Shown: positions 35,938 to 46,734, counted from the stretch's first letter. The stretch: DNA of 64,000 nucleotides from Alphaproteobacteria bacterium (GCA_965243135.1 OZ251539.1:992001-1056000), one strand, 5' to 3'. Notes: a model not told the origin generated them from the letters alone. Program-made: numbers and translations.

Positions 35938-38900
35938 ATGATGAGACTTTGTCGCACACAGTTGATCGGTAGTTCTCCCCCCCCCCCCCCCATAATCTGA
36001 AGCGAGGCTTCATCGCGCTGGGCGGGGCCGCGGCTTTTCTGCTGGCTTTTCCGGCCCCGTCCTTTGCGCAGGACTGCGGCAGCGCCGTTCGAGGCAGCTA
36101 CAATAGCGAAACCGGAGTTTTCTCCGCCGGAACGTCCGCTACGGACGTCGACTACAGGGTGCCTTGCACGGAGGACGACGGAGACTCCGTGATCACGCTG
36201 CCGACGGGTCTTTCGCTGCCGAACGCCGTTTCCGACTCGTACGTGGTGATCGAGGTCGCCGGGTCGGGAAGCGTTCGCAATTTTCAGCCCGGCGCCTGGA
36301 AATACGTCGTGAAGACTCCCGACGACTTCCGGACGGAAAACACGAACGACGCCCTCGGGCACGGCCTGTACTTCCGTAGCGGGAGCGGCGACGTGCGCGT
36401 CGAGCTGCGCGGCGCGGCGACCACCCGCGGAGCGGGCGCGACCGGCATGCGGGTGCGGGTCGACGGCAGCGGCAAGGCGACAGCGGTCAACATGGGAACG
36501 ATCGCCACCCATGGCGACACGCACACTTCCAGCGCGGTCGGCACGTTCATCCTGCCGGCCTACGGCGTCTTCGCGCAAGCGGCGCAGGGCGACGCCGAAG
36601 CGGTGAACCGCGGCGAGATCTCGACGGGCGGCGACGGAGCGAGAGGCATCTTCGCAACGGCCCGCGGGTCGGCGGTGGCGACCAATCACGGGAGGATCAC
36701 GGTTTCCGGTTCTCCGCATGTCTCCGGCTCGGAATACCGGTCTCCGCACGGCATTTTCGCTTGGGGCGGGACGGCGGAGGCCGCCAATTTCGGGACGGTC
36801 GAAACGCGGGGCGACCGGGGACGCGGCGTCTACGCGCGCGGGAGCGTCGCGACGGCGACCAATCGCGGCACGATCGTCACCCGCGGCAATCGCGCGGGCG
36901 TGGAAGGAAATTTCCTCTCGGCAATGGGAGTGGCCGCCCAATCGGGCGGCGACGCGACGGCCGTGAATGCCGAGGGCGCCGCGGTGGACACCTACGGCAC
37001 GAATGCCGACGCCCTGTTCGTCCGGTCGGGTACCGGAGACGCGAACGCCGTGAACGCGGGCGCGCTGCGCACGCACAATACGGTATCGGATCCCGCCAAC
37101 AGGCTCGCGCTCGCCGCCGAAGGCATCTACGCGCGTTCGGACAGCGGCAACGTCACGGTCGTGAACGAGGCGACGGGGTCCGTGCGGACGGCGGGCCCGC
37201 GGACATGGGGCATCCACGCGAGAACGTCCGGCGACGGCGCGGACGCTTCCGCAACGGTGACGGTGACGAACCGGGGCAGCGTGGAGACCCGGGGATGGAA
37301 CTCGGACGGCGTCGTGGCGGCAGCGTATCACGGAGGCAGCGAAGCCAACCCCAACGCCGTCAGGACGATCAACGCCGGAGCCGTCAGGACGCAGGGCGAC
37401 ATGGCCAGCGGCATTATCGCCGCCGTGGACGTCCGCGACCGCGGAACTTCTTTCGGCTCCGCGCGGGCGGAGAACGCCGGCACGATCTCGACCTCCGGCG
37501 GGCCCGGCGACGGAACGAACCCGACGGAAACCGCGTCCGGGGTGGTCGCCGCCTTTTTCAGCACGTCGGACGACGCGATCTCCGACGCCGGAGACGCGAC
37601 CGCGGTCAACAGCGGCACGGTGACCGTCGCCGGCGCGGGCGCGGCCGGACTCGTCGCCCGGACCTACGGGACCGGCGCGGCGACGGTGGAAAATTCCGAG
37701 GGCGGCACGGTGGACACTCGCGGCAAGAATGCCGACGCCATGTACGCCCGGTCGGACGCCGGAGCCGTGAACGCCGTGAACGCGGGCGCGCTTCGCACCC
37801 ACAACACGGTATCGGATCCCGCCAACAGGCTCGCGGACGCTTCCGAAGGCATCTACGCGCGTTCCGAACGCGGCAGCGTCACGGTCGTGAACGAGGCGAC
37901 GGGATCCGTGCGGACGGCGGGCCCGAGAACATGGGGCATCCATGCGAGAACGAACGGCGACGGCGCGGACGCTTCCGCAACGGTGACGGTCACGAACCGG
38001 GGCAGCGTGGAGACCCAAGGGTCGAACGCGGACGGCGTCGTGGCGGCAGCGTATCACGGCGGCAGCGAAGCCAACCCCAACGCCGTCACGACGACCAGTG
38101 CCGGACTCGTCAGGACGCAGGGCGACATGGCCAGCGGCATCATCGCCGCGGTGGACGTCCGCGACCGCGGAACCTCCTTCGGCTCCGCGCGGGCGGAGAA
38201 CGCCGGCACGATCTCGACGTCCGGCGGACCCGGCGACGGAACGGATCCGACGCAGACCGCGTCCGGAGTGGTCGCCGCCTTTTTCAGCACGTCGGACGAC
38301 GCGATCTCCGACGCCGGAGACGCGACCGCGGTCAACAGCGGCACGGTGACCGTCGCCGGCGCGGGCGCGGCCGGACTCGTCGCCCGGACCTACGGGTCCG
38401 GCGCGGCGACGGTGGAAATGAACGGCGGCGCCGTCGTCGCCTCTTCCGCGGACGACCCCGCGACGACGGCCGACGAGGGCGGCATCGGCATATGGGCCGC
38501 CACGGGCGCGTCCGGCAGGGCTTCGGTGACGGTCGGAAACGCGGCTGTCGTCCGGGCGCCGGTTGCGGCGCGGCTCGAAGGCGGCTCCACGAGGCTCGAC
38601 CTTTCTTCCGGCTGGCTCGTCGGCGACGTGCGCTTCGGGAGCGGCGACAACACCCTGAACGTCAGGCAATCAGGCGTCATCGTCGGCGACGTGGCGTTCG
38701 GGGACGGAGAGGACGCGTTGATACTCGACATCTCCTCGGCTGAGGGGATCGGCAGCGTTGCAGGATCGGTCACCGGACTTGAGAACATGATCAAGCGTGG
38801 TTCCGGCGTCGCGCGCGTGCGCGACGTGACTTTCTCCGGCTCCCGGCTTGCGGTCGAGGACGGCATGTTGTCGGTTCGCGGCCATCTCGACCTGGGCGGC

Positions 38901-40283
38901 GACGGCGCCGTCACGATCGAAAACGCCGGCAGGCTGCAGGTGGAGGTCGGCGACCTTGCCGGCAATCCCCAAGACCACGGACGGATCACGGCTGGAAACG
39001 GGGTCCACTTCGAGGAGGGCGCCGAACGGACTGTCCGGGTGGCGCATGCTCCGGATCGCTCCGCCGCGCAGAGGACCGCTTCCGAACAAGTCCTCCAGAC
39101 CGCCGGGATCGCAATCCTCGTCGACGGAACCCCTGCCGTCGATGGACGGAATGAACAGTCGATTGGGGATCTGACCTTGACGACAGAAACGCCCGAAGGG
39201 ACGGTGAACACGGTCGGCAACGTCTCTGTAGACGGTGTAGCCCAGATCAACCCGGGCGCGGAGTTGCCGACCGCCCGGAAGGAGGCCTCTCCACCCGGTG
39301 AACAGAAACCGGAAGCGGACGCGCCTGAGGCTGCCGTGCCCGCCGTGAAGCGCAAAGACCGCAGGGATCGCCGTTTCCTGATCGGGGGAGGAGGGCTGTT
39401 CGCCCTGCTGATGTTCGCTTTCGACCCGTTCCACATGGTGGAGGCGGGCGGTTCGAGCGCCGCGGTCCAGCCGGCGGACGGCCGCGAGGGCGTCGAGGCG
39501 CGCGCGTTCACCGCGGACGCACGGGTGGCGGGGGGAACGATGCGCGGCGTGACGCTGGGCGTCGCTTCGCGGCTCGGCGGCGGTCTCCATCTCGGAGTGT
39601 CGGCGACGCCCGCCCTTGCGGCGACGGCCGATTCCGGGGAGGCGCTGGAAGGGGGCCGGTTCGGGCTTCAGGGCCGCTGGCGGTCGGGCATCCTGGATAT
39701 GGGGGCCAGCCTGTCTCACGGAACCTACGACGCCCGGTCGAAGTCCGCCAACCTCGAAGGGCTGGACAACCCGGAAGGCGTGTACGGACTGCGCCACGGC
39801 CATGCGCAGATGCGCCTGGGCGCCCGCGTCGCCGCCGCCGGAATCGACGTCGCCCCCTCGCTGTCGCTGTTCGGCGGCCGCCTGGAGCAGACGGCGCACA
39901 CGGCGCGGTCCGCGGCTCTGCGCGCCGAAGTGCCGGCGCTGACCCGGCGCTACGGCGGCTGGAAGGCGCGGCTCGACCTCGGGCCGCAGGACTGGCTGCA
40001 GGCCGGCCCTGTCCGGTGGCGCCCGCGGCTGGGCCTCGCCGCGGCGCGGATCTCCACCGACGCTCCGGACGGGCTCCGGGTGCGCCAGTCCGACGCCGCC
40101 GGCGCGTTGAGCTTCACGACGCCGGCGCAGGCGGAAGCGCTGCCGCGGAGGATGCACGCGCTCGCCCTGTCGGCGTTCGCCCGCGGCGAAACCTGGAAAC
40201 TGGATGGCGGCTACGTGGCGGCGATGGTGGCGGACGGCGAGCCGGTCCATGCAGTTGCGGCGCGGCTGCGCATCGACTTCTGA
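35938..40283 (+). CDS. autotransporter-type surface protein/adhesin, frameshifted at a poly-C tract in the signal peptide
   Basis: RBS and ATG at 35938; after the C15 tract an alternative frame encodes HNLKRGFIALGGAAAFLLAFPAPSFA-QD and runs unbroken into ORF 36159..40283; Gly/Ala/Thr-rich beta-helix-like repeats (NxGxIxTxG), IKRGSGV motif, C-terminal beta-strands ending RLRIDF. Confidence 0.85.
35977..35991 (+). repeat. C15 homopolymer (candidate slipped-strand switch)
   Basis: 15 consecutive C residues following codon 13 of the autotransporter leader. Confidence 0.9.
36964..38418 (+). repeat. 726-bp (242-aa) tandem duplication in the autotransporter passenger
   Basis: AACGCCGTGAACGCGGGCGCG at 37044 and 37770; shadow ORFs 37328..37618 and 38054..38344 are offset by exactly 726 bp. 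Confidence 0.92.
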
Positions 40284-40289
40284 CCGTCT

Positions 40290-40325
40290 CCGCCCGCCTC
40301 CTTTCCCCCGCAGGGAGGCGGGCGG
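40290..40325 (+). terminator. GC-rich hairpin after the autotransporter stop
   Basis: 12-bp stem CCGCCCGCCTCC/GGAGGCGGGCGG; no canonical U-tract. Confidence 0.4.
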
Positions 40326-41283
40326 CGCGCCGAAAAAGCTGAAGGCGGTCGCCCCAAGCCTCCCGGATTCGCCCTCCTGCTCCGGCATGACGATGTCTCA
40401 AGGCGTACGGAATCTTGGGAACCGGAACGATAATATTGCCGCGAACCATGGCCTGGACGATTTGCGCCCCTGCAACGGGTCACGCGTTCTGCGGAGCGAC
40501 GCCTCGGTTTTCGCGTCGCGGATCGACCTGCAGGTTGCTGACGGCGCGAACGGCCCGGCTGGCTGCCGGGTTTTGCGCAAGGTAGGCGCGATCCGGGAGC
40601 CTTTCGTCGGAGGCGGCGCGGACGCAACGCCTTGGGACGGCGGTCGCGCAGCGGCTTCGCGGAAGCCGGTCGTTGCGCCGACGGCATCAAATTTTCCCGT
40701 TCTTCCTCGGTCGTTGCGCTCGTACCACGCTCGTAGCATCATGGCGGACGGGCGAACGGGAGAAAACCGGGGAATGGCTTGGGAGAACGGCGGGACTTGA
40801 CGCGGGCAGGAATTTCGTGCGAAATGCCAAGGTCATTTCAAGTTTAAAGAGAAACATGCCGAAATTGGTAGTGGAATACCTGTTTGCGTCGAGACGTTGC
40901 GAAGCGGTCAGATGGTACGGATGGTAAGGTCATTATGGGGAGTTCACGGTGTCTAGGGGTTCACCGGCTGCGAAGTTTGCCAAGCAGATCCGAAAGGCCG
41001 TGGCCATCCTCTGCCCAATGATGATCGGTCGTGACTGGCTGGCAGCGCTGATCGTACAATCCCAGAAACCCACCAGCTGAAGGTGGCGCCCGTGGCACGA
41101 TTTTGGAAGATGTTCTCCGACCCGAACTGGAAGAAGAGCTGATGTGGAGTGCAGAAGCGAGGGCATCGACGCGAAGCGTGACGTCCGCGTTTCGCGGTTC
41201 GGAACGGGATAACGCGATGCCGCCAGCCAAAAAGCACCAGAAATGAATACTTTCCTTCCGATTTGATTATGGGATGATGATTT

Positions 41284-42765
41284 ATGGGCCAGAATTTTCC
41301 CCCTGATTTATCTTCGCAATTTAATGATCCTTTAATCACGTTTTCCGACGCCAAATCATTGGAACAAAAGACTCTTGCGATTAAAGGGTTAATGAAAGGA
41401 GGAGCGATTCATGCTGCGCATAAGGATTTGCGTTTTTCGAAAGGATTGAACGAAACAATCAATCGTTTAAATTCCACAAAAGACGCTAAGGAAATACTAT
41501 TGTCTCTTGCTATATTGTCTCGTGTTGCGAATCGAATCAAACCCTATAAGGAGGGGTTAAAACCGCAAATCAATGCTATTTTGCGAAATGCACCGCCACC
41601 TTTATCGATCCTAGATGAAGCGGAGGACAGAGCATATGTCGCACAATCTTTAAGATATTGGGCAACAGGCGATTGGATAGTTTCTTATGTAGCGCTCTGT
41701 ATAGTAAATGAGGAGACAGGTGAAAAAGTAAGATCCGAACTTATTCGTACTTTATTTTGCGAATCTCAGGATCTTACGATTGCATTTAAGGAAATTCAAC
41801 GACAGCTCGTATCTTGGGAACCGAAAACTGAATCACCGGGGGACAGCGTTGCGAGACGACTAAAGCGGATTTTCAGTAGTATGCGCCGGGAAATATTAAG
41901 TATTGAAAAGCCTTCTGGTAGTGAAATTGGTACGGCTATTAACAGCATAATTGTTGATTCTTTTCGCAAAACCGATCCTCCTAGGGATCGAAAGGTTGCG
42001 ATTGATTTTGTGGCAGAAACAGCTTTTCTCATTCATGATGTTATTCGAACTAATTTTTCCATAGCATCAATTAGCTCCACATATTTGCCATTAACGACAC
42101 TATCTCGTTGGTTTGCGCCGATCTCGTGGCCTCAAGCTACCCGCTCAGCTCTTCAGAAGTTATCGCAAGATATACAAGAAGCTATTTTGATGAAAGCTAG
42201 GCAAGGTCTTCCGGACGACGAATTGCTAAAATTTTTAACTTTGATTGAAGGATCACGGACGGTGGCTCTGCGGCTCACCTCTCAAATTGCTGATCGCACA
42301 CCCAGTCTCAATAAAGAAATGACGCAGTGGTTACGTCGCGGAAGAGTTACAAAGAATGTTGATAGCACAGAAATAGTGGCGGAAAACAGTTTCCTTGCAT
42401 CCGACACTGCTTTAGCGTTCTTATTGTTGGATAGTTTTCGGTTGGTTGAATTACTTGAGGCCGATAGCCAAGATATACTCACCGAAATGCGTATTTTCAA
42501 TCCTGAGCTAGAAGAGATGGTCAAAAAGATACTTGAGCTTTCTGGTGCGCTTACGAAAGGGGTCGAAGCATTAGCGAAAAGAAGATCCTTATTTTGTCGA
42601 GGAGAAATTGGCAATATAGTAGATTATTCGTCGTTGGAGCAAGAGCCTGTCTCTGGTTCCGTTGTGGGCGCTACCAAGGTGCGTGTTATACGACCGCTTG
42701 TCGAACGTATCCGGAGCGATCAAGTTCCCGAAATTGTGGTCAAAGCAATAGTCAATCGTGCTTGA
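41284..42765 (+). CDS. hypothetical helical protein with a GrpE-like C-terminal region
   Basis: 493-aa ORF in AT-rich DNA; C-terminus ...GVEALAKRRSL..GEIGNIVDYSSLEQEPV...VRVIRPLV...IVVKAIV resembles the GrpE helix plus beta domain. Confidence 0.75.
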   Translation: MGQNFPPDLSSQFNDPLITFSDAKSLEQKTLAIKGLMKGGAIHAAHKDLRFSKGLNETINRLNSTKDAKEILLSLAILSRVANRIKPYKEGLKPQINAILRNAPPPLSILDEAEDRAYVAQSLRYWATGDWIVSYVALCIVNEETGEKVRSELIRTLFCESQDLTIAFKEIQRQLVSWEPKTESPGDSVARRLKRIFSSMRREILSIEKPSGSEIGTAINSIIVDSFRKTDPPRDRKVAIDFVAETAFLIHDVIRTNFSIASISSTYLPLTTLSRWFAPISWPQATRSALQKLSQDIQEAILMKARQGLPDDELLKFLTLIEGSRTVALRLTSQIADRTPSLNKEMTQWLRRGRVTKNVDSTEIVAENSFLASDTALAFLLLDSFRLVELLEADSQDILTEMRIFNPELEEMVKKILELSGALTKGVEALAKRRSLFCRGEIGNIVDYSSLEQEPVSGSVVGATKVRVIRPLVERIRSDQVPEIVVKAIVNRA

Positions 42766-42816
42766 CGAGTTGGAATCCCCCTTGAATCAGCAAATTAGCT
42801 TGCAAAGGAAGAGAGC

Positions 42817-44496
42817 ATGAACACAAACAACGCCAAGATAATTCTTGAAAATCTCTTGGAGCGGATTGAAAATAATCCCCAAACAGGGAGAAAGACTCTT
42901 CCTGGGATAATTTCTGATCGTGAGTATGCAGCGATTGATTTTGCCATCAATGTGCTAAGGAAAACTAGTCCTGATGAGAATTATGAAGAACACCCTATAT
43001 CGACAATAAGCGAGACCTCAACCGGTTCAACGGCCCAGCTGGAGCTACGATGCCTCGATTATATTAAGCCGGAAGACCCCAATGTTATACTCTGTATAGA
43101 TTTTGGAACCGCGATGTCAAAGGCTGTCGTGACCAAGGACGCCGATGACGAGATATTGCCTTTGCCGTTGGGGCGAAAATCTGGCGAGCCTGTTTTAGTT
43201 TTTCCTATGTCTTCCACGTTGTTTATTTCACGCACGGGTCGAATATATTTCGGATATTCGGCGATTAGAGAAAGCTTGGCGGAGGAATCAAAAGGAGGTC
43301 TATCACGCAAAGAAAGCCGATCACGCTTTGACTCTTCGAAACAACGTTTAAGTCAGGGGATGTTGGCTGATCCTTCCAGACGAAATGTTGATGAAACAAT
43401 AAATCCCACCGAGTATACCTTTACTGAGGGTGATTTGATTTTGCTAATCTTATCTTTCTTAACCGATCTTGCCTGCACAGAACTCGAAGAGAAGGGCATA
43501 TCACGATATGTTCGGAGGCGTTTTGCCATGCCATTTTGGAGCGGAGATAGAGCGGAGTGGGCGAAGTCTTATATGACAAAGCTGTTAGCAAAGGCGCAGA
43601 TAGTTGCTGATACATTTTCTGGCCAGTGGGCAAATGGTTTAGAAGCGGAAAGAGTACAACGAATATTGAACGATGTCAATAATTGCGAAAAATTTCCTGA
43701 ATACTTAATTGATAATCCGGTTTTTGAGGCAGCAGCTGCAGCAAGTAGTAGTTTTCCATATGGATCGGGAAAACGGGAATTGTATATGATAATGGATGTT
43801 GGTGCTGGAACGGTTGATTACGGATTATATGCCGTTGTCACTCCTAAGAATGACACGAAGAAGCCGAAAATATTTCAAGCTAAAGGAACCATGTTGGCAT
43901 TAAGAAAAGGGGGAGATACTATAGACGGGATTTTGAGGCTATTTATTTTGGAGAGAGAAAGAATTAACGAGAAGGATGCGGATTTTGACTATATCGACCG
44001 TGATCTGAAATTGAGGATTCGGACTCTGAAAGAAAATCTATTTCAACAAGGAGCAGTTACCTATAATCTTTCTAATGATTCCGTTGGGGAGGTTGTTCTA
44101 GAAGATTTTTTGGCGGACCGAAGAATGACTGAATTGGAACGAGTTTTTCGAGAAAGTTTCGAGAAATCTTTGATGAATGCTGAACCTTCATGGATAACAA
44201 AATTATCTCAATCTAGGCTTACGGTTGTTTTGACGGGTGGTGGTGCGCGATTGCCAATACTGACAGGTTTGAGTACCTCATCCTTTAAAGTTCACGGTGT
44301 AAATCTGCAATGTAAAGGCACAGCAGTTGTACCGGAGTGGTTTACTGAAAAATATAGCGAATGGGAGACCGAATTTCCTCAGTTGGCTGTTGCTATAGGA
44401 GGGGCGGAGGAGGATCCGCCTGATATATGCAGAGAATATGGAGAAATCGGAATATCAGATACAAAAATTGTTGGGCTTAAGCCTGAGTATAAATAG
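42817..44496 (+). CDS. divergent Hsp70/actin-fold ATPase lacking a substrate-binding domain
   Basis: CIDFGTAMSK (phosphate 1), FEAAAAA (connect 1), MDVGAGTVD (phosphate 2), GGDTID, VLTGGGARLP (adenosine); RBS AAGGAAGAG. Confidence 0.88.
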   Translation: MNTNNAKIILENLLERIENNPQTGRKTLPGIISDREYAAIDFAINVLRKTSPDENYEEHPISTISETSTGSTAQLELRCLDYIKPEDPNVILCIDFGTAMSKAVVTKDADDEILPLPLGRKSGEPVLVFPMSSTLFISRTGRIYFGYSAIRESLAEESKGGLSRKESRSRFDSSKQRLSQGMLADPSRRNVDETINPTEYTFTEGDLILLILSFLTDLACTELEEKGISRYVRRRFAMPFWSGDRAEWAKSYMTKLLAKAQIVADTFSGQWANGLEAERVQRILNDVNNCEKFPEYLIDNPVFEAAAAASSSFPYGSGKRELYMIMDVGAGTVDYGLYAVVTPKNDTKKPKIFQAKGTMLALRKGGDTIDGILRLFILERERINEKDADFDYIDRDLKLRIRTLKENLFQQGAVTYNLSNDSVGEVVLEDFLADRRMTELERVFRESFEKSLMNAEPSWITKLSQSRLTVVLTGGGARLPILTGLSTSSFKVHGVNLQCKGTAVVPEWFTEKYSEWETEFPQLAVAIGGAEEDPPDICREYGEIGISDTKIVGLKPEYK

Positions 44497-44612
44497 AGCC
44501 GAGTATCATCTATTTCTCTAATTTTCATTGGGTGGGTATCAAGCAGAAGGACGGTAGGCTACAATGCCCCCTGGGGCGACGGATTTGCGGGTGCGGCTTG
44601 GAGAAGGGGCAA

Positions 44613-45605
44613 ATGCAGAACGACATTCATCTCACCATGGCGACATGGGATTACGACCATATCCGCGACATCGCGTCGGGCGCAGTCAAGCCGAAGGGCA
44701 TCAGGATCACCCACCTGGAGATGGAGGTCGAGGAGATCTTCTACCGCTTCGCAAAATCCTTCGAATGGGACGTTTCGGAGCTTTCCTTCGCGAAGTACTG
44801 CTCGATCCTGTCCCAAGACGCCCCGCCGATCACCGGCATACCCGTCTTCGTCAGCCGCGTCTTCCGCCATTCGGCGTTCTACGTCTGGAGGGGGAGCGGC
44901 GTCGAGAAACCCGAAGATCTGCGCGGCGGCCGGGTCGGGATACCGGAGTGGTCGCAGACGGCGACGGTTTACGCGCGCGGCTGGCTGCATCACCAGGCTG
45001 GCGTGAAGCTTGACGAGGTGGAGTGGGTGCAGGCGGGAGTCGACGCTCCCGGGCGGCTCGAGATGGCGACGCTCAAGCTGCCGGAAGGCGTCAAGTATAC
45101 GCAGGTTCCCGACCGGTCGCTGTCCGAAATGCTTGGCGACGGGACGATCGATTGCATGATATCGGCGCATGCGCCGCAGGCGTTCGAGACGGGAGAGATC
45201 GTGCGTCTGATTCCCGATTATCGAGACGCCGAGGAACGGTATTTCGAAGAGACCGGCATCTTTCCGATCATGCACACGATCGCCATCCGGCGAGATGCGT
45301 ACGAGAATCATCCCTGGATTGCGCGCAACCTGATGACGGCGTTCGAAGAGGCGCGCGACCGCAGCGTTGCGCGAATCACCAGCGTCACTGCGTCGCAGAT
45401 CCCCGTGCCCTGGGGCTACGAGAACGCCGGGCGCATCGGGCGGAAGGTGTTCGGCGACGGCGGGTTGTGGCCCTACGGGATCGAAGCCAACCGGACCACG
45501 ATCGAAGCGTTTCTCCAATACTGCCACGAACAGGGCGTTTGCCATCGCAGACTCGCTCCGGAAGATCTCTACGCTCCGGAAGCTCTGACGGAGTACGTGA
45601 TATGA
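44613..45605 (+). CDS. 4,5-dihydroxyphthalate decarboxylase-like / periplasmic-binding-fold protein
   Basis: YDH, DVSELS, PVFVSRVFRHS, DLRGGRVGIPEWSQTA, GIFPIMH, WPYGIEANR, QG motifs. Confidence 0.85.
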   Translation: MQNDIHLTMATWDYDHIRDIASGAVKPKGIRITHLEMEVEEIFYRFAKSFEWDVSELSFAKYCSILSQDAPPITGIPVFVSRVFRHSAFYVWRGSGVEKPEDLRGGRVGIPEWSQTATVYARGWLHHQAGVKLDEVEWVQAGVDAPGRLEMATLKLPEGVKYTQVPDRSLSEMLGDGTIDCMISAHAPQAFETGEIVRLIPDYRDAEERYFEETGIFPIMHTIAIRRDAYENHPWIARNLMTAFEEARDRSVARITSVTASQIPVPWGYENAGRIGRKVFGDGGLWPYGIEANRTTIEAFLQYCHEQGVCHRRLAPEDLYAPEALTEYVI

Positions 45606-45638
45606 AGTTCGTGACGCAGGCGAAACGGAGGTCGAGCA

Positions 45639-46175
45639 ATGCTTGGAAGAATCGGAGCGGCGCTGTTCGCCGCATTGGCGATGGGAGCGGCCCAGGCGGC
45701 CGACAAGAATGACATGCTGTATCTCGAAACGCAGCACGGCAAGGTCGTAATCGAAATGCGCCCGGATCTCGCGCCGCGCCATGTCGAGCGCATCCGGGAA
45801 CTCGTCAGGCAGAAGTTCTACGACGGATTGAAGTTTCACCGGGTGATCGACGGATTCATGGCCCAGACGGGAGATCCGAGGGGAGACGGAACGGGCGGTT
45901 CGGGGCAGAAGCTGCCTCCCGAATTCTCCTCCGAAAAGCATGTGCGCGGCGTCGTGTCGATGGCGCGGGCCGCCGATCCGGCGAGCGCGGACAGCCAGTT
46001 CTTTATCGTGCTTGCGGATGCCCCGTGGCTGGATGGACAGTACACGATCTGGGGCATGGTTACGGAAGGCATGGAGCATGTCGACCGGATCAAGAAAGGA
46101 GACAGGCAGCGCAACGGCGTGGTTCGCGATCCCGACAGCATCGTGACCTTGCGCGTGGCGGCCGATGTCGAATAG
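45639..46175 (+). CDS. cyclophilin-type peptidyl-prolyl cis-trans isomerase (exported)
   Basis: signal peptide, FYDGLKFHRVIDGFMAQTGDP, SMAR, SQFFI, WLDGQYT. Confidence 0.95.
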   Translation: MLGRIGAALFAALAMGAAQAADKNDMLYLETQHGKVVIEMRPDLAPRHVERIRELVRQKFYDGLKFHRVIDGFMAQTGDPRGDGTGGSGQKLPPEFSSEKHVRGVVSMARAADPASADSQFFIVLADAPWLDGQYTIWGMVTEGMEHVDRIKKGDRQRNGVVRDPDSIVTLRVAADVE

Positions 46176-46734
46176 AGGGATTATTCGGAACGTTTGAATG
46201 AAGCGCGGGCTCGCTCCGCCCTGTCATCCCCCTATCAACTTCGATCCCGTTGGAACGCCTGAAGCGGCCGTTTGCCGGCTGACGCTCTTTCGTCCCGGCA
46301 TACCCGGCGCGAAAGGCCGTGCTCCGGCCGTTCGGCCGGATGTCATACGCCATCGAGAGGCCGCGGCGGCCATGGCCGGGCACGGCGCATGCACCCGGAG
46401 TGGTGTTGCAAGCCATTGCTCTATCCCGCGCTGCGTTTCCAATACGACCATGTTGGTTCCTTCGGGGAGACGTAAGCGTTCGGTCGTGGGGTGACGTTGT
46501 TGAGGTCCCTCCTCCAGTTCCGCTGCAGGGGCTTCAGCGTCCTTGACCGGGAGAGCGCGTTCTTTCCCCGGGTGCTGCCGCGGCCCTTGAGCAACTCAAG
46601 GGCGGCTTCTACGCTGCGCGACGGCGACGATTCGAACCGCGTCCGCCGACCGGACGGAGCCATGCTGAACTTACCGGCTTGGCTATGCAGTGGCACGGTC
46701 CCAAGAGATAGCTTGCTCGTAGGTAAGCAAACTT

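Follow-up and report, generated by a model that had tools for sequence, protein, structure and literature searches.

We identify, at positions 41284-44496 of a 64,000-nucleotide stretch of DNA from an Alphaproteobacteria bacterium (GCA_965243135.1, OZ251539.1:992001-1056000; the whole stretch is called the window below), a two-gene locus that, judged by its sequence matches, is a copy of PDC-M61, a catalogued and uncharacterised phage-defence candidate. Its genes, A and B, are predicted to encode a helical solenoid protein with a possibly GrpE-like tail and an Hsp70-type ATPase that lacks a substrate-binding domain. We propose that the locus is a horizontally acquired, stand-alone PDC-M61 cassette and that A and B form an anti-phage (or anti-mobile-element) switch, a reading to which we give a probability of about 0.5. 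The pair is laid out as follows, with model confidence given as the predicted local distance difference test (pLDDT) and the predicted template modelling score (pTM):

41284..42765, plus strand: gene A, ATG start, 493 amino acids (aa), PDC-M61A family; AlphaFold model pLDDT 94.0, pTM 0.75
42766..42816, plus strand: spacer between A and B, 51 bp
42817..44496, plus strand: gene B, ATG start, 559 aa, PDC-M61B family; model pLDDT 84.6, pTM 0.77

Both genes match a catalogued defence candidate

Protein A is matched by the PADLOC PDC-M61A model PDLC04728 (expect value, E, 5e-84; 280 bits), its residues 12-492 aligning to positions 8-488 of 489, and by three more PDC-M61A models at E 2e-70 to 5e-39. 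Protein B is matched over nearly its full length by the PDC-M61B model PDLC04731 (E 7.9e-135, 449 bits; genome-level E 1.6e-122), and the gene order of PDC-M61, with A before B on the same strand and adjacent, is that of the window. A preliminary description of this DNA had presented the pair as an undescribed system and had named PADLOC as one place to check; since both genes match PDC-M61 models (PDC-M61A and PDC-M61B), the pair is already catalogued and that claim falls. Other parts of the same description hold. The co-oriented genes with their 51-bp gap were reproduced to the exact coordinates, and its picture of two genes forming a compact foreign module, one of them for an Hsp70-type ATPase that has no substrate-binding domain, was borne out.

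PDC-M61 is one of 145 single- or multi-gene "phage defence candidates" (PDCs) described in a preprint by Payne, Hughes, Fineran and Jackson (bioRxiv 10.1101/2024.01.29.577857). According to its passages on the method, these were found by "guilt-by-embedding", at least one copy of each lying inside a BREX, DISARM or type I restriction system; embedded systems mostly occur non-embedded elsewhere, and seven of nine Hma-embedded candidates that were tested protected Escherichia coli (bioRxiv 10.1101/2024.01.29.577857). PDC-M61 has been part of PADLOC since the 2023-2024 release. The passages of the preprint that concern PDC-M61 hold no domain description, mechanism or test (bioRxiv 10.1101/2024.01.29.577857). 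The single further paper found by full-text search to mention PDC-M61 is an association study in Pseudomonas aeruginosa; its relevant passages give a negative correlation with prophage number in isolates, which is a statistical association only. Other papers, where they mention PDC systems, call them unpublished or never verified, and the relevant part of a cold-seep study describes assays of other PDCs, not of PDC-M61.

The pair is inherited as a unit and recurs in defence loci

Linkage was assessed by a profile scan of all related loci fetched, 13 of which were assessable (one further locus, L014, is a fragment and was left out of the count). In 12 of the 13, B is immediately preceded by A: ten full pairs (the window, L001-L005, L007, L009, L013 and L016) and two pairs cut by contig ends (L008 and L015). 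The remaining locus, L006, has a divergent B-like gene without A in the 6 kb upstream. Across the ten full pairs, the pairwise identities of A and of B correlate with r = 0.90 over 45 non-independent comparisons, and A and B are inherited as one unit. The gap between the genes is 0-40 bp in related loci, or the genes overlap; in the window, no terminator-like site was found on the plus strand of the spacer (42766..42816), and A and B probably lie within one operon.

Selected neighbouring open reading frames (ORFs) were scanned at each locus. On that basis, eight of the nine genome-contig loci have a defence context. The neighbours are:

L002: flanked by HmaB and HmaC (both E 0); next to a TIR protein
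L003: DUF1156-methylase and DUF499-ATPase flanks, of the same kind as in L002 (Pfam only); HEC-05 (GmrSD-like) and Septu PtuA
L007: HKD+Snf2 helicase upstream, DUF4391 in frame with A, HEC-07 downstream
L008: DrmD and a PLD nuclease
L001: type II methyltransferase and DzbA
L004: DpdB-like protein and PDC-M33A
L005: integrase and a GajB/UvrD-like helicase
L009: weak match to a methyl-directed restriction enzyme

Because related pairs sit inside Hma/DISARM-type restriction systems or adjoin other defence genes, a defence role for the pair is a reasonable guess.

The cassette is rare and has been acquired horizontally. The B family was detected in none of 25 further genomes from the same family, in two of 14 from a sister family, and in none of 400 others in a phylum sample (E<=1e-20). 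A tblastn search of 72,556 plasmid and 50,697 phage records returned no match for B at E<=1e-5, and a ParM/ParR-like partition reading was dropped on this result.

Protein B is a predicted Hsp70-type ATPase

By predicted fold and motifs, B is an Hsp70-type ATPase, and its model divides into three parts:

42817..42966, plus strand: B residues 1-50, conserved two-helix N-terminal domain, helices 3-16 and 34-49 (AlphaFold model)
42967..43032, plus strand: B residues 51-72, variable linker, pLDDT <50
43075..44406, plus strand: B residues 87-530, compact domain, Hsp70-type nucleotide-binding domain with the catalytic set intact

The Hsp70/actin ATP-binding motifs that the preliminary description had seen in B are present: CxDFGTAxSK at 93-102, E304, DxGAGTxD at 327-334 and GG at 474-475. 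Within them, D95, G97, T98, K102, E304, D327, G329, G331, T332, D334, G474 and G475 are invariant in 30 aligned homologues. A B profile searched against PDB sequences finds the nucleotide-binding domains of HSC70 and BiP at E 6e-10, and in the alignment with HSC70, E304 corresponds to the catalytic Glu, DxGAGTxD to phosphate-2 and LTGGGA to the adenosine motif. When the B model was compared with the PDB by Foldseek, the best 50 matches were all nucleotide-binding domains of Hsp70, BiP, HSC70 or DnaK (best E 1.2e-15, target template modelling score, TM, 0.64-0.74, 13-18% identity). Against Pfam, B matches no family at E<=1 and does not reach the gathering threshold of Hsp70 (PF00012); a few of its homologues carry precomputed PF00012 matches, and NCBIfam gives only faint echoes of HscA, FtsA and MamK (HscA at 18 bits against a cut-off of 708). 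Of the candidates scored, 171 are relatives of B, the closest 82% identical and the others at most 50%.

The N-terminal extension, earlier put at roughly 90 aa, measures about 85 aa and consists of two helices and then the linker. The two-helix domain aligns to positions 1-59 of the PDC-M61B model and keeps L13, R16, G30 and A39 across loci. The linker is probably disordered, judging by the model; across homologues it ranges from about 20 to more than 150 residues, it can grow to more than 100 Pro/Glu/Ala-rich residues, and in many homologues its composition is of this kind, like a flexible tether. Columns 60-200 of the homologue alignment are mostly gaps or low complexity, with the two-helix head staying conserved, and the extra length of the family (about 545-660 aa) sits in this linker. 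At the other end, the last helix of the nucleotide-binding domain (514-529) is followed by about 30 aa to the C-terminus, of which 541-559 are modelled with low confidence and disordered, and B thus ends with no substrate-binding domain, as had been described.

A very distant ASKHA-like protein of 547 aa (L008:4841-6484) is detected by the PDC-M61B model at E 2e-7 and, in pieces, by the B profile at E 1e-11. Its gene is situated downstream of DrmD; the locus is DISARM-like and contains a divergent B as well.

Protein A is a helical solenoid with a separate tail

Protein A belongs to a family of 375 clusters at 50% identity, nearly all of about 480-495 aa and matched end to end in an exhaustive HMMER search; with these clusters and the 171 database relatives of B, the features of both proteins stand far beyond chance. 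The model of A has two parts, joined by a low-confidence hinge at residues 353-360:

41302..42339, plus strand: A residues 7-352, all-alpha solenoid of about 19 helices, ARM/HEAT-like (DSSP of the model)
42364..42762, plus strand: A residues 361-493, tail with helix 361-405 (45 residues), helix 407-433 (27 residues) and seven short strands at 436-492

The helices and strands of the tail are modelled at pLDDT >90. The earlier view of A as a long helical protein fits this model, in which A is all-helical to residue 433 and then forms a beta-rich tail (436-492). Foldseek with the whole model gives weak armadillo-repeat, importin-alpha and AP2/adaptin-type matches (E 4e-4 to 1e-2, TM 0.2-0.4). The near-invariant residues of A are R116, W131, E143, R150, R192, G216, W282, L314, W349 and L350, and no conserved residues of catalytic type were found in A.

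Sequence searches with A return little. Nothing in Pfam is significant, and residues 152-191 give a weak, below cut-off match to NFRKB_winged (E 0.031); in PADLOC, residues 13-62 weakly match DpdD (E 0.003); an A profile finds no PDB sequence at E<=10, and a profile of the tail finds only ApoE-type helical-bias matches at E of about 0.02. A language-model look-up with the whole of A returned only its own unnamed family. No fused form of A of at least 882 aa was found, which is weak evidence. In Pseudoxanthomonas sp. Root630 (L007:7836-9998), an A homologue lies in one 720-aa open frame with an N-terminal DUF4391 (E 1e-53), which may be either a fused gene or two genes that share a frame.

The tail of A resembles GrpE below usual thresholds

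The preliminary description had likened the end of A to GrpE, the exchange factor of DnaK, and this stands in part. A profile of the tail aligned by hhalign to a broad alignment of 53 GrpE sequences scores 21.2 (P 0.0076). None of 334 column shuffles reaches that score (mean 11.8, standard deviation 2.2, maximum 20.7), and a reversed GrpE alignment scores 12.1. Each half of the A family, taken separately, gives the same register (21.8 and 22.5). The match is tail-specific: nine slices of A without the tail score 11.1-13.7, and the two slices that include it are the only ones to score higher (20.6 and 21.2). The alignment is co-linear from the helices into the start of the beta domain, where A reads G-E-x-V-E-Y-S-P-x-x-H-E and GrpE reads G-E-K-F-D-P-x-x-H-E-A. 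In a language-model look-up with A 395-493, a GrpE-fragment cluster ranked second among named clusters (0.85) and a PF01025 cluster eighth (0.81), a result at lead level only.

GrpE is built as helix, helix and then beta domain, and the helix-helix-beta order in the model of the tail fits this architecture.

Standard searches do not detect the likeness, and these results weigh against a GrpE assignment. Pfam GrpE (PF01025) does not match A at E<=1 and in this genome finds only the canonical grpE, and the PDB searches with the A and tail profiles list no GrpE at E<=10. The hhalign probability is 5% for the tail, under usual thresholds, and 0.2% for a full-length A profile against 25 closely related GrpE sequences. 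Among the best 50 matches listed in the whole-A Foldseek search, which the solenoid dominates, there is no GrpE. Taking both sides together, we lean towards regarding the tail as a true GrpE-like module. That it acts as the exchange factor of B is a more tentative and somewhat doubtful step. A complex prediction of A 27-493 with B 1-531, made with alignments, scored 0.01 against a mark of 0.32 and counts neither way.

The cassette lies on a strain-specific island

In 1-kb windows across 41000-44499 the GC content is 0.41-0.45, against 0.60-0.73 in the flanks on both sides. The foreign composition that the preliminary description saw in the pair is evident from this difference and from the lack of any DNA match in same-genus genomes: a DNA search with 40337-44600 found none in four of four such genomes. 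All four retain the downstream gene (44613-46166), at 72-75% identity. With the cassette absent and the flank conserved, the island is strain-specific, about 4.2 kb long, with A and B as its sole genes. Its margins are:

40337..41283, no strand: left part of the island; GC drops from about 0.66 to 0.45; without a convincing gene
44497..44612, no strand: right edge of the island, ending at the conserved downstream gene (ATG at 44613); same-genus homology resumes at about 44600-44635

The ORF at 40204-40800 has no Pfam match. The island has no flanking direct repeats and no integrase, and no tRNA was found in the window. Between 40000 and 45000 there is no Rfam match at E<=0.1, and promoter-like and terminator-like sites at the locus are not enriched relative to shuffles. 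No J domain turned up in the neighbouring ORFs that were scanned with Pfam, in line with the earlier remark that no J-domain gene is adjacent. The NMT1-like downstream neighbour has no PADLOC match.

Upstream lies a plus-strand ORF of 1374 aa (36159-40283) whose interior holds long Gly/Ala/Thr-rich repeats and whose C-terminal part is autotransporter-like; it has no Pfam match and was not found in the four same-genus genomes. The last 1.3 kb of this region (39000-40336) is 99% identical to G000:C1:4043558-4044887 of the same genome, with shorter copies of 90-93% identity nearby. Beyond the island, a motif of about 30 nucleotides at about 46464-46500 occurs in more than 12 copies of 91-100% identity on both strands, scattered over the genome, and looks like a repetitive extragenic palindromic (REP)-type intergenic repeat.

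The genome carries a second, divergent copy

A second PDC-M61-like pair lies 3.6 Mb away at L016:6699-10672 (G000:C1:4674698-4678671), with a GC content of 0.42-0.46. Its A2 (496 aa) is 26% identical to A of the window and its B2 is 30% identical to B. The two genes are separated by a 773-bp stretch with a GC content of about 0.55 that is unique in the genome and holds one frame resembling a fragment of an IS110-type transposase. No B-type N-terminal domain was detected in B2, which suggests that B2 is probably truncated at its N terminus. In a maximum-likelihood tree, B2 groups with a sister-family copy (Shimodaira-Hasegawa-like approximate likelihood ratio test 100 in a quick tree; the same pairing in a careful tree), in a clade far from B of the window, which indicates that the two copies were acquired separately. 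Compared at the DNA level, the two islands share no flank and no mobile signature.

A proposed switch and its alternatives

We propose that the solenoid of A would serve as a sensor (or scaffold) that binds a phage- or stress-derived protein, and that this sensing would be coupled to the nucleotide cycle of B. The tail of A would act on B as GrpE does on DnaK, opening the nucleotide cleft and setting the ADP/ATP state. B, the sole enzyme of the pair, would then deliver the output, whether by an ATP-dependent conformational change, by its tethered N-terminal domain or by self-assembly; this effector step is the weakest part of the model. PDC-M61 would in that form be a minimal Hsp70 cycle used as an immune switch, working without a client-binding domain or J protein, in which a sensor gates exchange and the ATP state of B stops infection. 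We regard this full version as rather unlikely. If it were true, PDC-M61 would be the first defence system to work by the principle of Hsp70-GrpE nucleotide exchange, and if both GrpE-like exchange and a defence role hold, a chaperone-derived switch would have been reused for immunity, in parallel to the predicted systems outlined by Kaur et al. in 2020. As a sighting the locus adds little; its value lies in an anatomy that gives a concrete mechanistic hypothesis for an uncharacterised candidate, in a compact cassette (3.2 kb, two genes) that is cheap to test.

Several observations weigh against an anti-phage function. The passages of the source preprint that deal with the 145 PDCs themselves term them untested (bioRxiv 10.1101/2024.01.29.577857), a full-text literature search found no published experiment on PDC-M61, and another PDC pair, PDC-M63AB, proved to have no defence activity in a deletion test in the native host, according to the passages that cover it. 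Pfam, PADLOC and NCBIfam scans found no recognisable nuclease, toxin or membrane effector domain in A or B. The copy in the window stands alone, with an autotransporter-like gene and a conserved NMT1-like gene as its neighbours, and many of the PADLOC families matched by neighbours of the pair, such as methyltransferases and helicases, are generic.

Such points lead to the alternative that survives best, which we still consider unlikely: the pair is not immune at all and is cargo of mobile DNA, for example a private chaperone- or cytoskeleton-like ATPase with its adaptor that aids maintenance of an element or a stressed cell, restriction loci being merely insertion hot spots. The lack of an effector domain and of any defence phenotype in print would fit, as would the ordinary metabolic or surface-protein surroundings of both copies in this genome and the integrase that adjoins the pair in L005. 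The empty search of plasmid and phage records argues, however, against a plasmid or phage maintenance function, and no small DNA-binding gene of partition type is present. Insertion hot spots also sit poorly with the pair in L002, which lies exactly between HmaB and HmaC, and with the flanks of the same kind in L003 (Pfam only); the embedding pattern, in the tests reported in the preprint, predicted working defence genes in seven of nine cases (bioRxiv 10.1101/2024.01.29.577857).

A second alternative, which we hold to be quite improbable, keeps the defensive role and gives up GrpE. A would be a sensor or scaffold, or a client of B, and B an actin-like polymerising ATPase or a decoy/Hsp110-like partner of host DnaK; as a decoy, B would starve phages that need DnaK, DnaJ and GrpE. 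This would accommodate the sub-threshold GrpE similarity, and also the conserved tethered N-terminal domain of B, which a simple exchange-factor model leaves unexplained; multimeric assemblies of Hsp70-family proteins in conflict systems are proposed in the relevant part of Kaur et al. 2020 (PMC7159879). Polymerisation of an actin-like kind is less easily reconciled with the structures nearest to B, the best 50 of which all come from Hsp70 nucleotide-binding domains, with no MreB, ParM or actin among them. The profile of the B family barely detects the DnaK-sized ORF of the genome (E 0.03), so B is not a close DnaK mimic. The tail-GrpE match itself is reproducible, tail-specific and co-linear through both helices into the beta domain.

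The least probable alternative makes the pair an accessory or regulatory module of Hma/DISARM-type restriction systems that is useless alone, the two copies in this genome being stranded relics; the embedding between HmaB and HmaC in L002 and between flanks of the same kind in L003, the adjoining Snf2 and DrmD helicases in L007 and L008, the open frame shared by A and DUF4391 in L007 and the IS110-like remnant in place of the N-terminal domain of B in the second copy all speak for it, but both genes of the copy in the window are intact and retain all invariant residues, the hosts of embedded copies differ (Hma, DISARM-like, methyltransferase-only and Dpd-like), which fits an independent cassette inserting into such loci, and embedded systems, according to the preprint passages on this point, are mostly found non-embedded elsewhere (bioRxiv 10.1101/2024.01.29.577857).

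Comparison with known systems

The stand-alone defence cassette that we favour can be set beside four known arrangements. The first is the DnaK-GrpE pair. B shares with DnaK the Hsp70 nucleotide-binding fold, as predicted, and the catalytic motifs, and the tail of A can be aligned co-linearly to the GrpE helices and the start of the beta domain, including the motif G-E-x-(F/Y)-(D/S)-P-x-x-H-E. The differences are that Pfam Hsp70 does not recognise B, that Pfam GrpE does not recognise A, and that the 350-aa solenoid of A is absent from GrpE. B has neither a substrate-binding domain nor a J-protein partner, which makes protein folding an unlikely function.

The second is the group of GAP1-N2 GTPase-centric conflict systems, for which the relevant passages of Kaur, Burroughs, Iyer and Aravind (eLife 2020, PMC7159879) describe HSP70, GrpE and an HSP70 without a peptide-binding domain. 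They offer a precedent, as far as those passages go, for predicted conflict operons that combine an Hsp70, a GrpE exchange factor and a second kind of Hsp70 without its substrate domain. As described there, these systems are multi-gene and GTPase-centred, have FNIII, DnaJ and TPR components and occur mainly in actinobacteria and firmicutes; the pair in the window, in contrast, has two genes, no GTPase and a GrpE-like part fused to a solenoid. No GTPase domain was found in A, B or the neighbouring ORFs scanned, and a GAP1-N2 system was rejected as the home of the pair, its defining GTPase partner being missing from those ORFs.

CoCoNuT systems come third. Their CnuD and CnuCD proteins combine Hsp70-like nucleotide- and substrate-binding domains with HEAT-like repeats, according to the relevant part of Bell et al. 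(eLife 2024, PMC11090510). The likeness lies in an Hsp70-like ATPase and HEAT-like helical repeats within restriction-type defence loci. In that account, CnuD has both a nucleotide- and a substrate-binding domain, degenerate ATP-binding motifs and ties to McrBC-type GTPase/nuclease genes, whereas in the window the motifs are invariant, the substrate-binding domain is absent, the helical repeats belong to a second protein and the adjacent genes include none of McrB type. Neither CnuB/McrB-type GTPase nor CnuC domains were found in the scanned flanking ORFs of the window or of related loci. CoCoNuT was rejected as the home of the pair, its defining partner genes being missing and B lacking a substrate-binding domain.

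PDC-M61 itself remains the closest arrangement. Both proteins of the window match its models near full length, in the same order and orientation, and related copies are embedded in Hma/DISARM-type systems, as the method of discovery requires. The copy in the window differs in being solo and not embedded; nothing that defines PDC-M61 differs.

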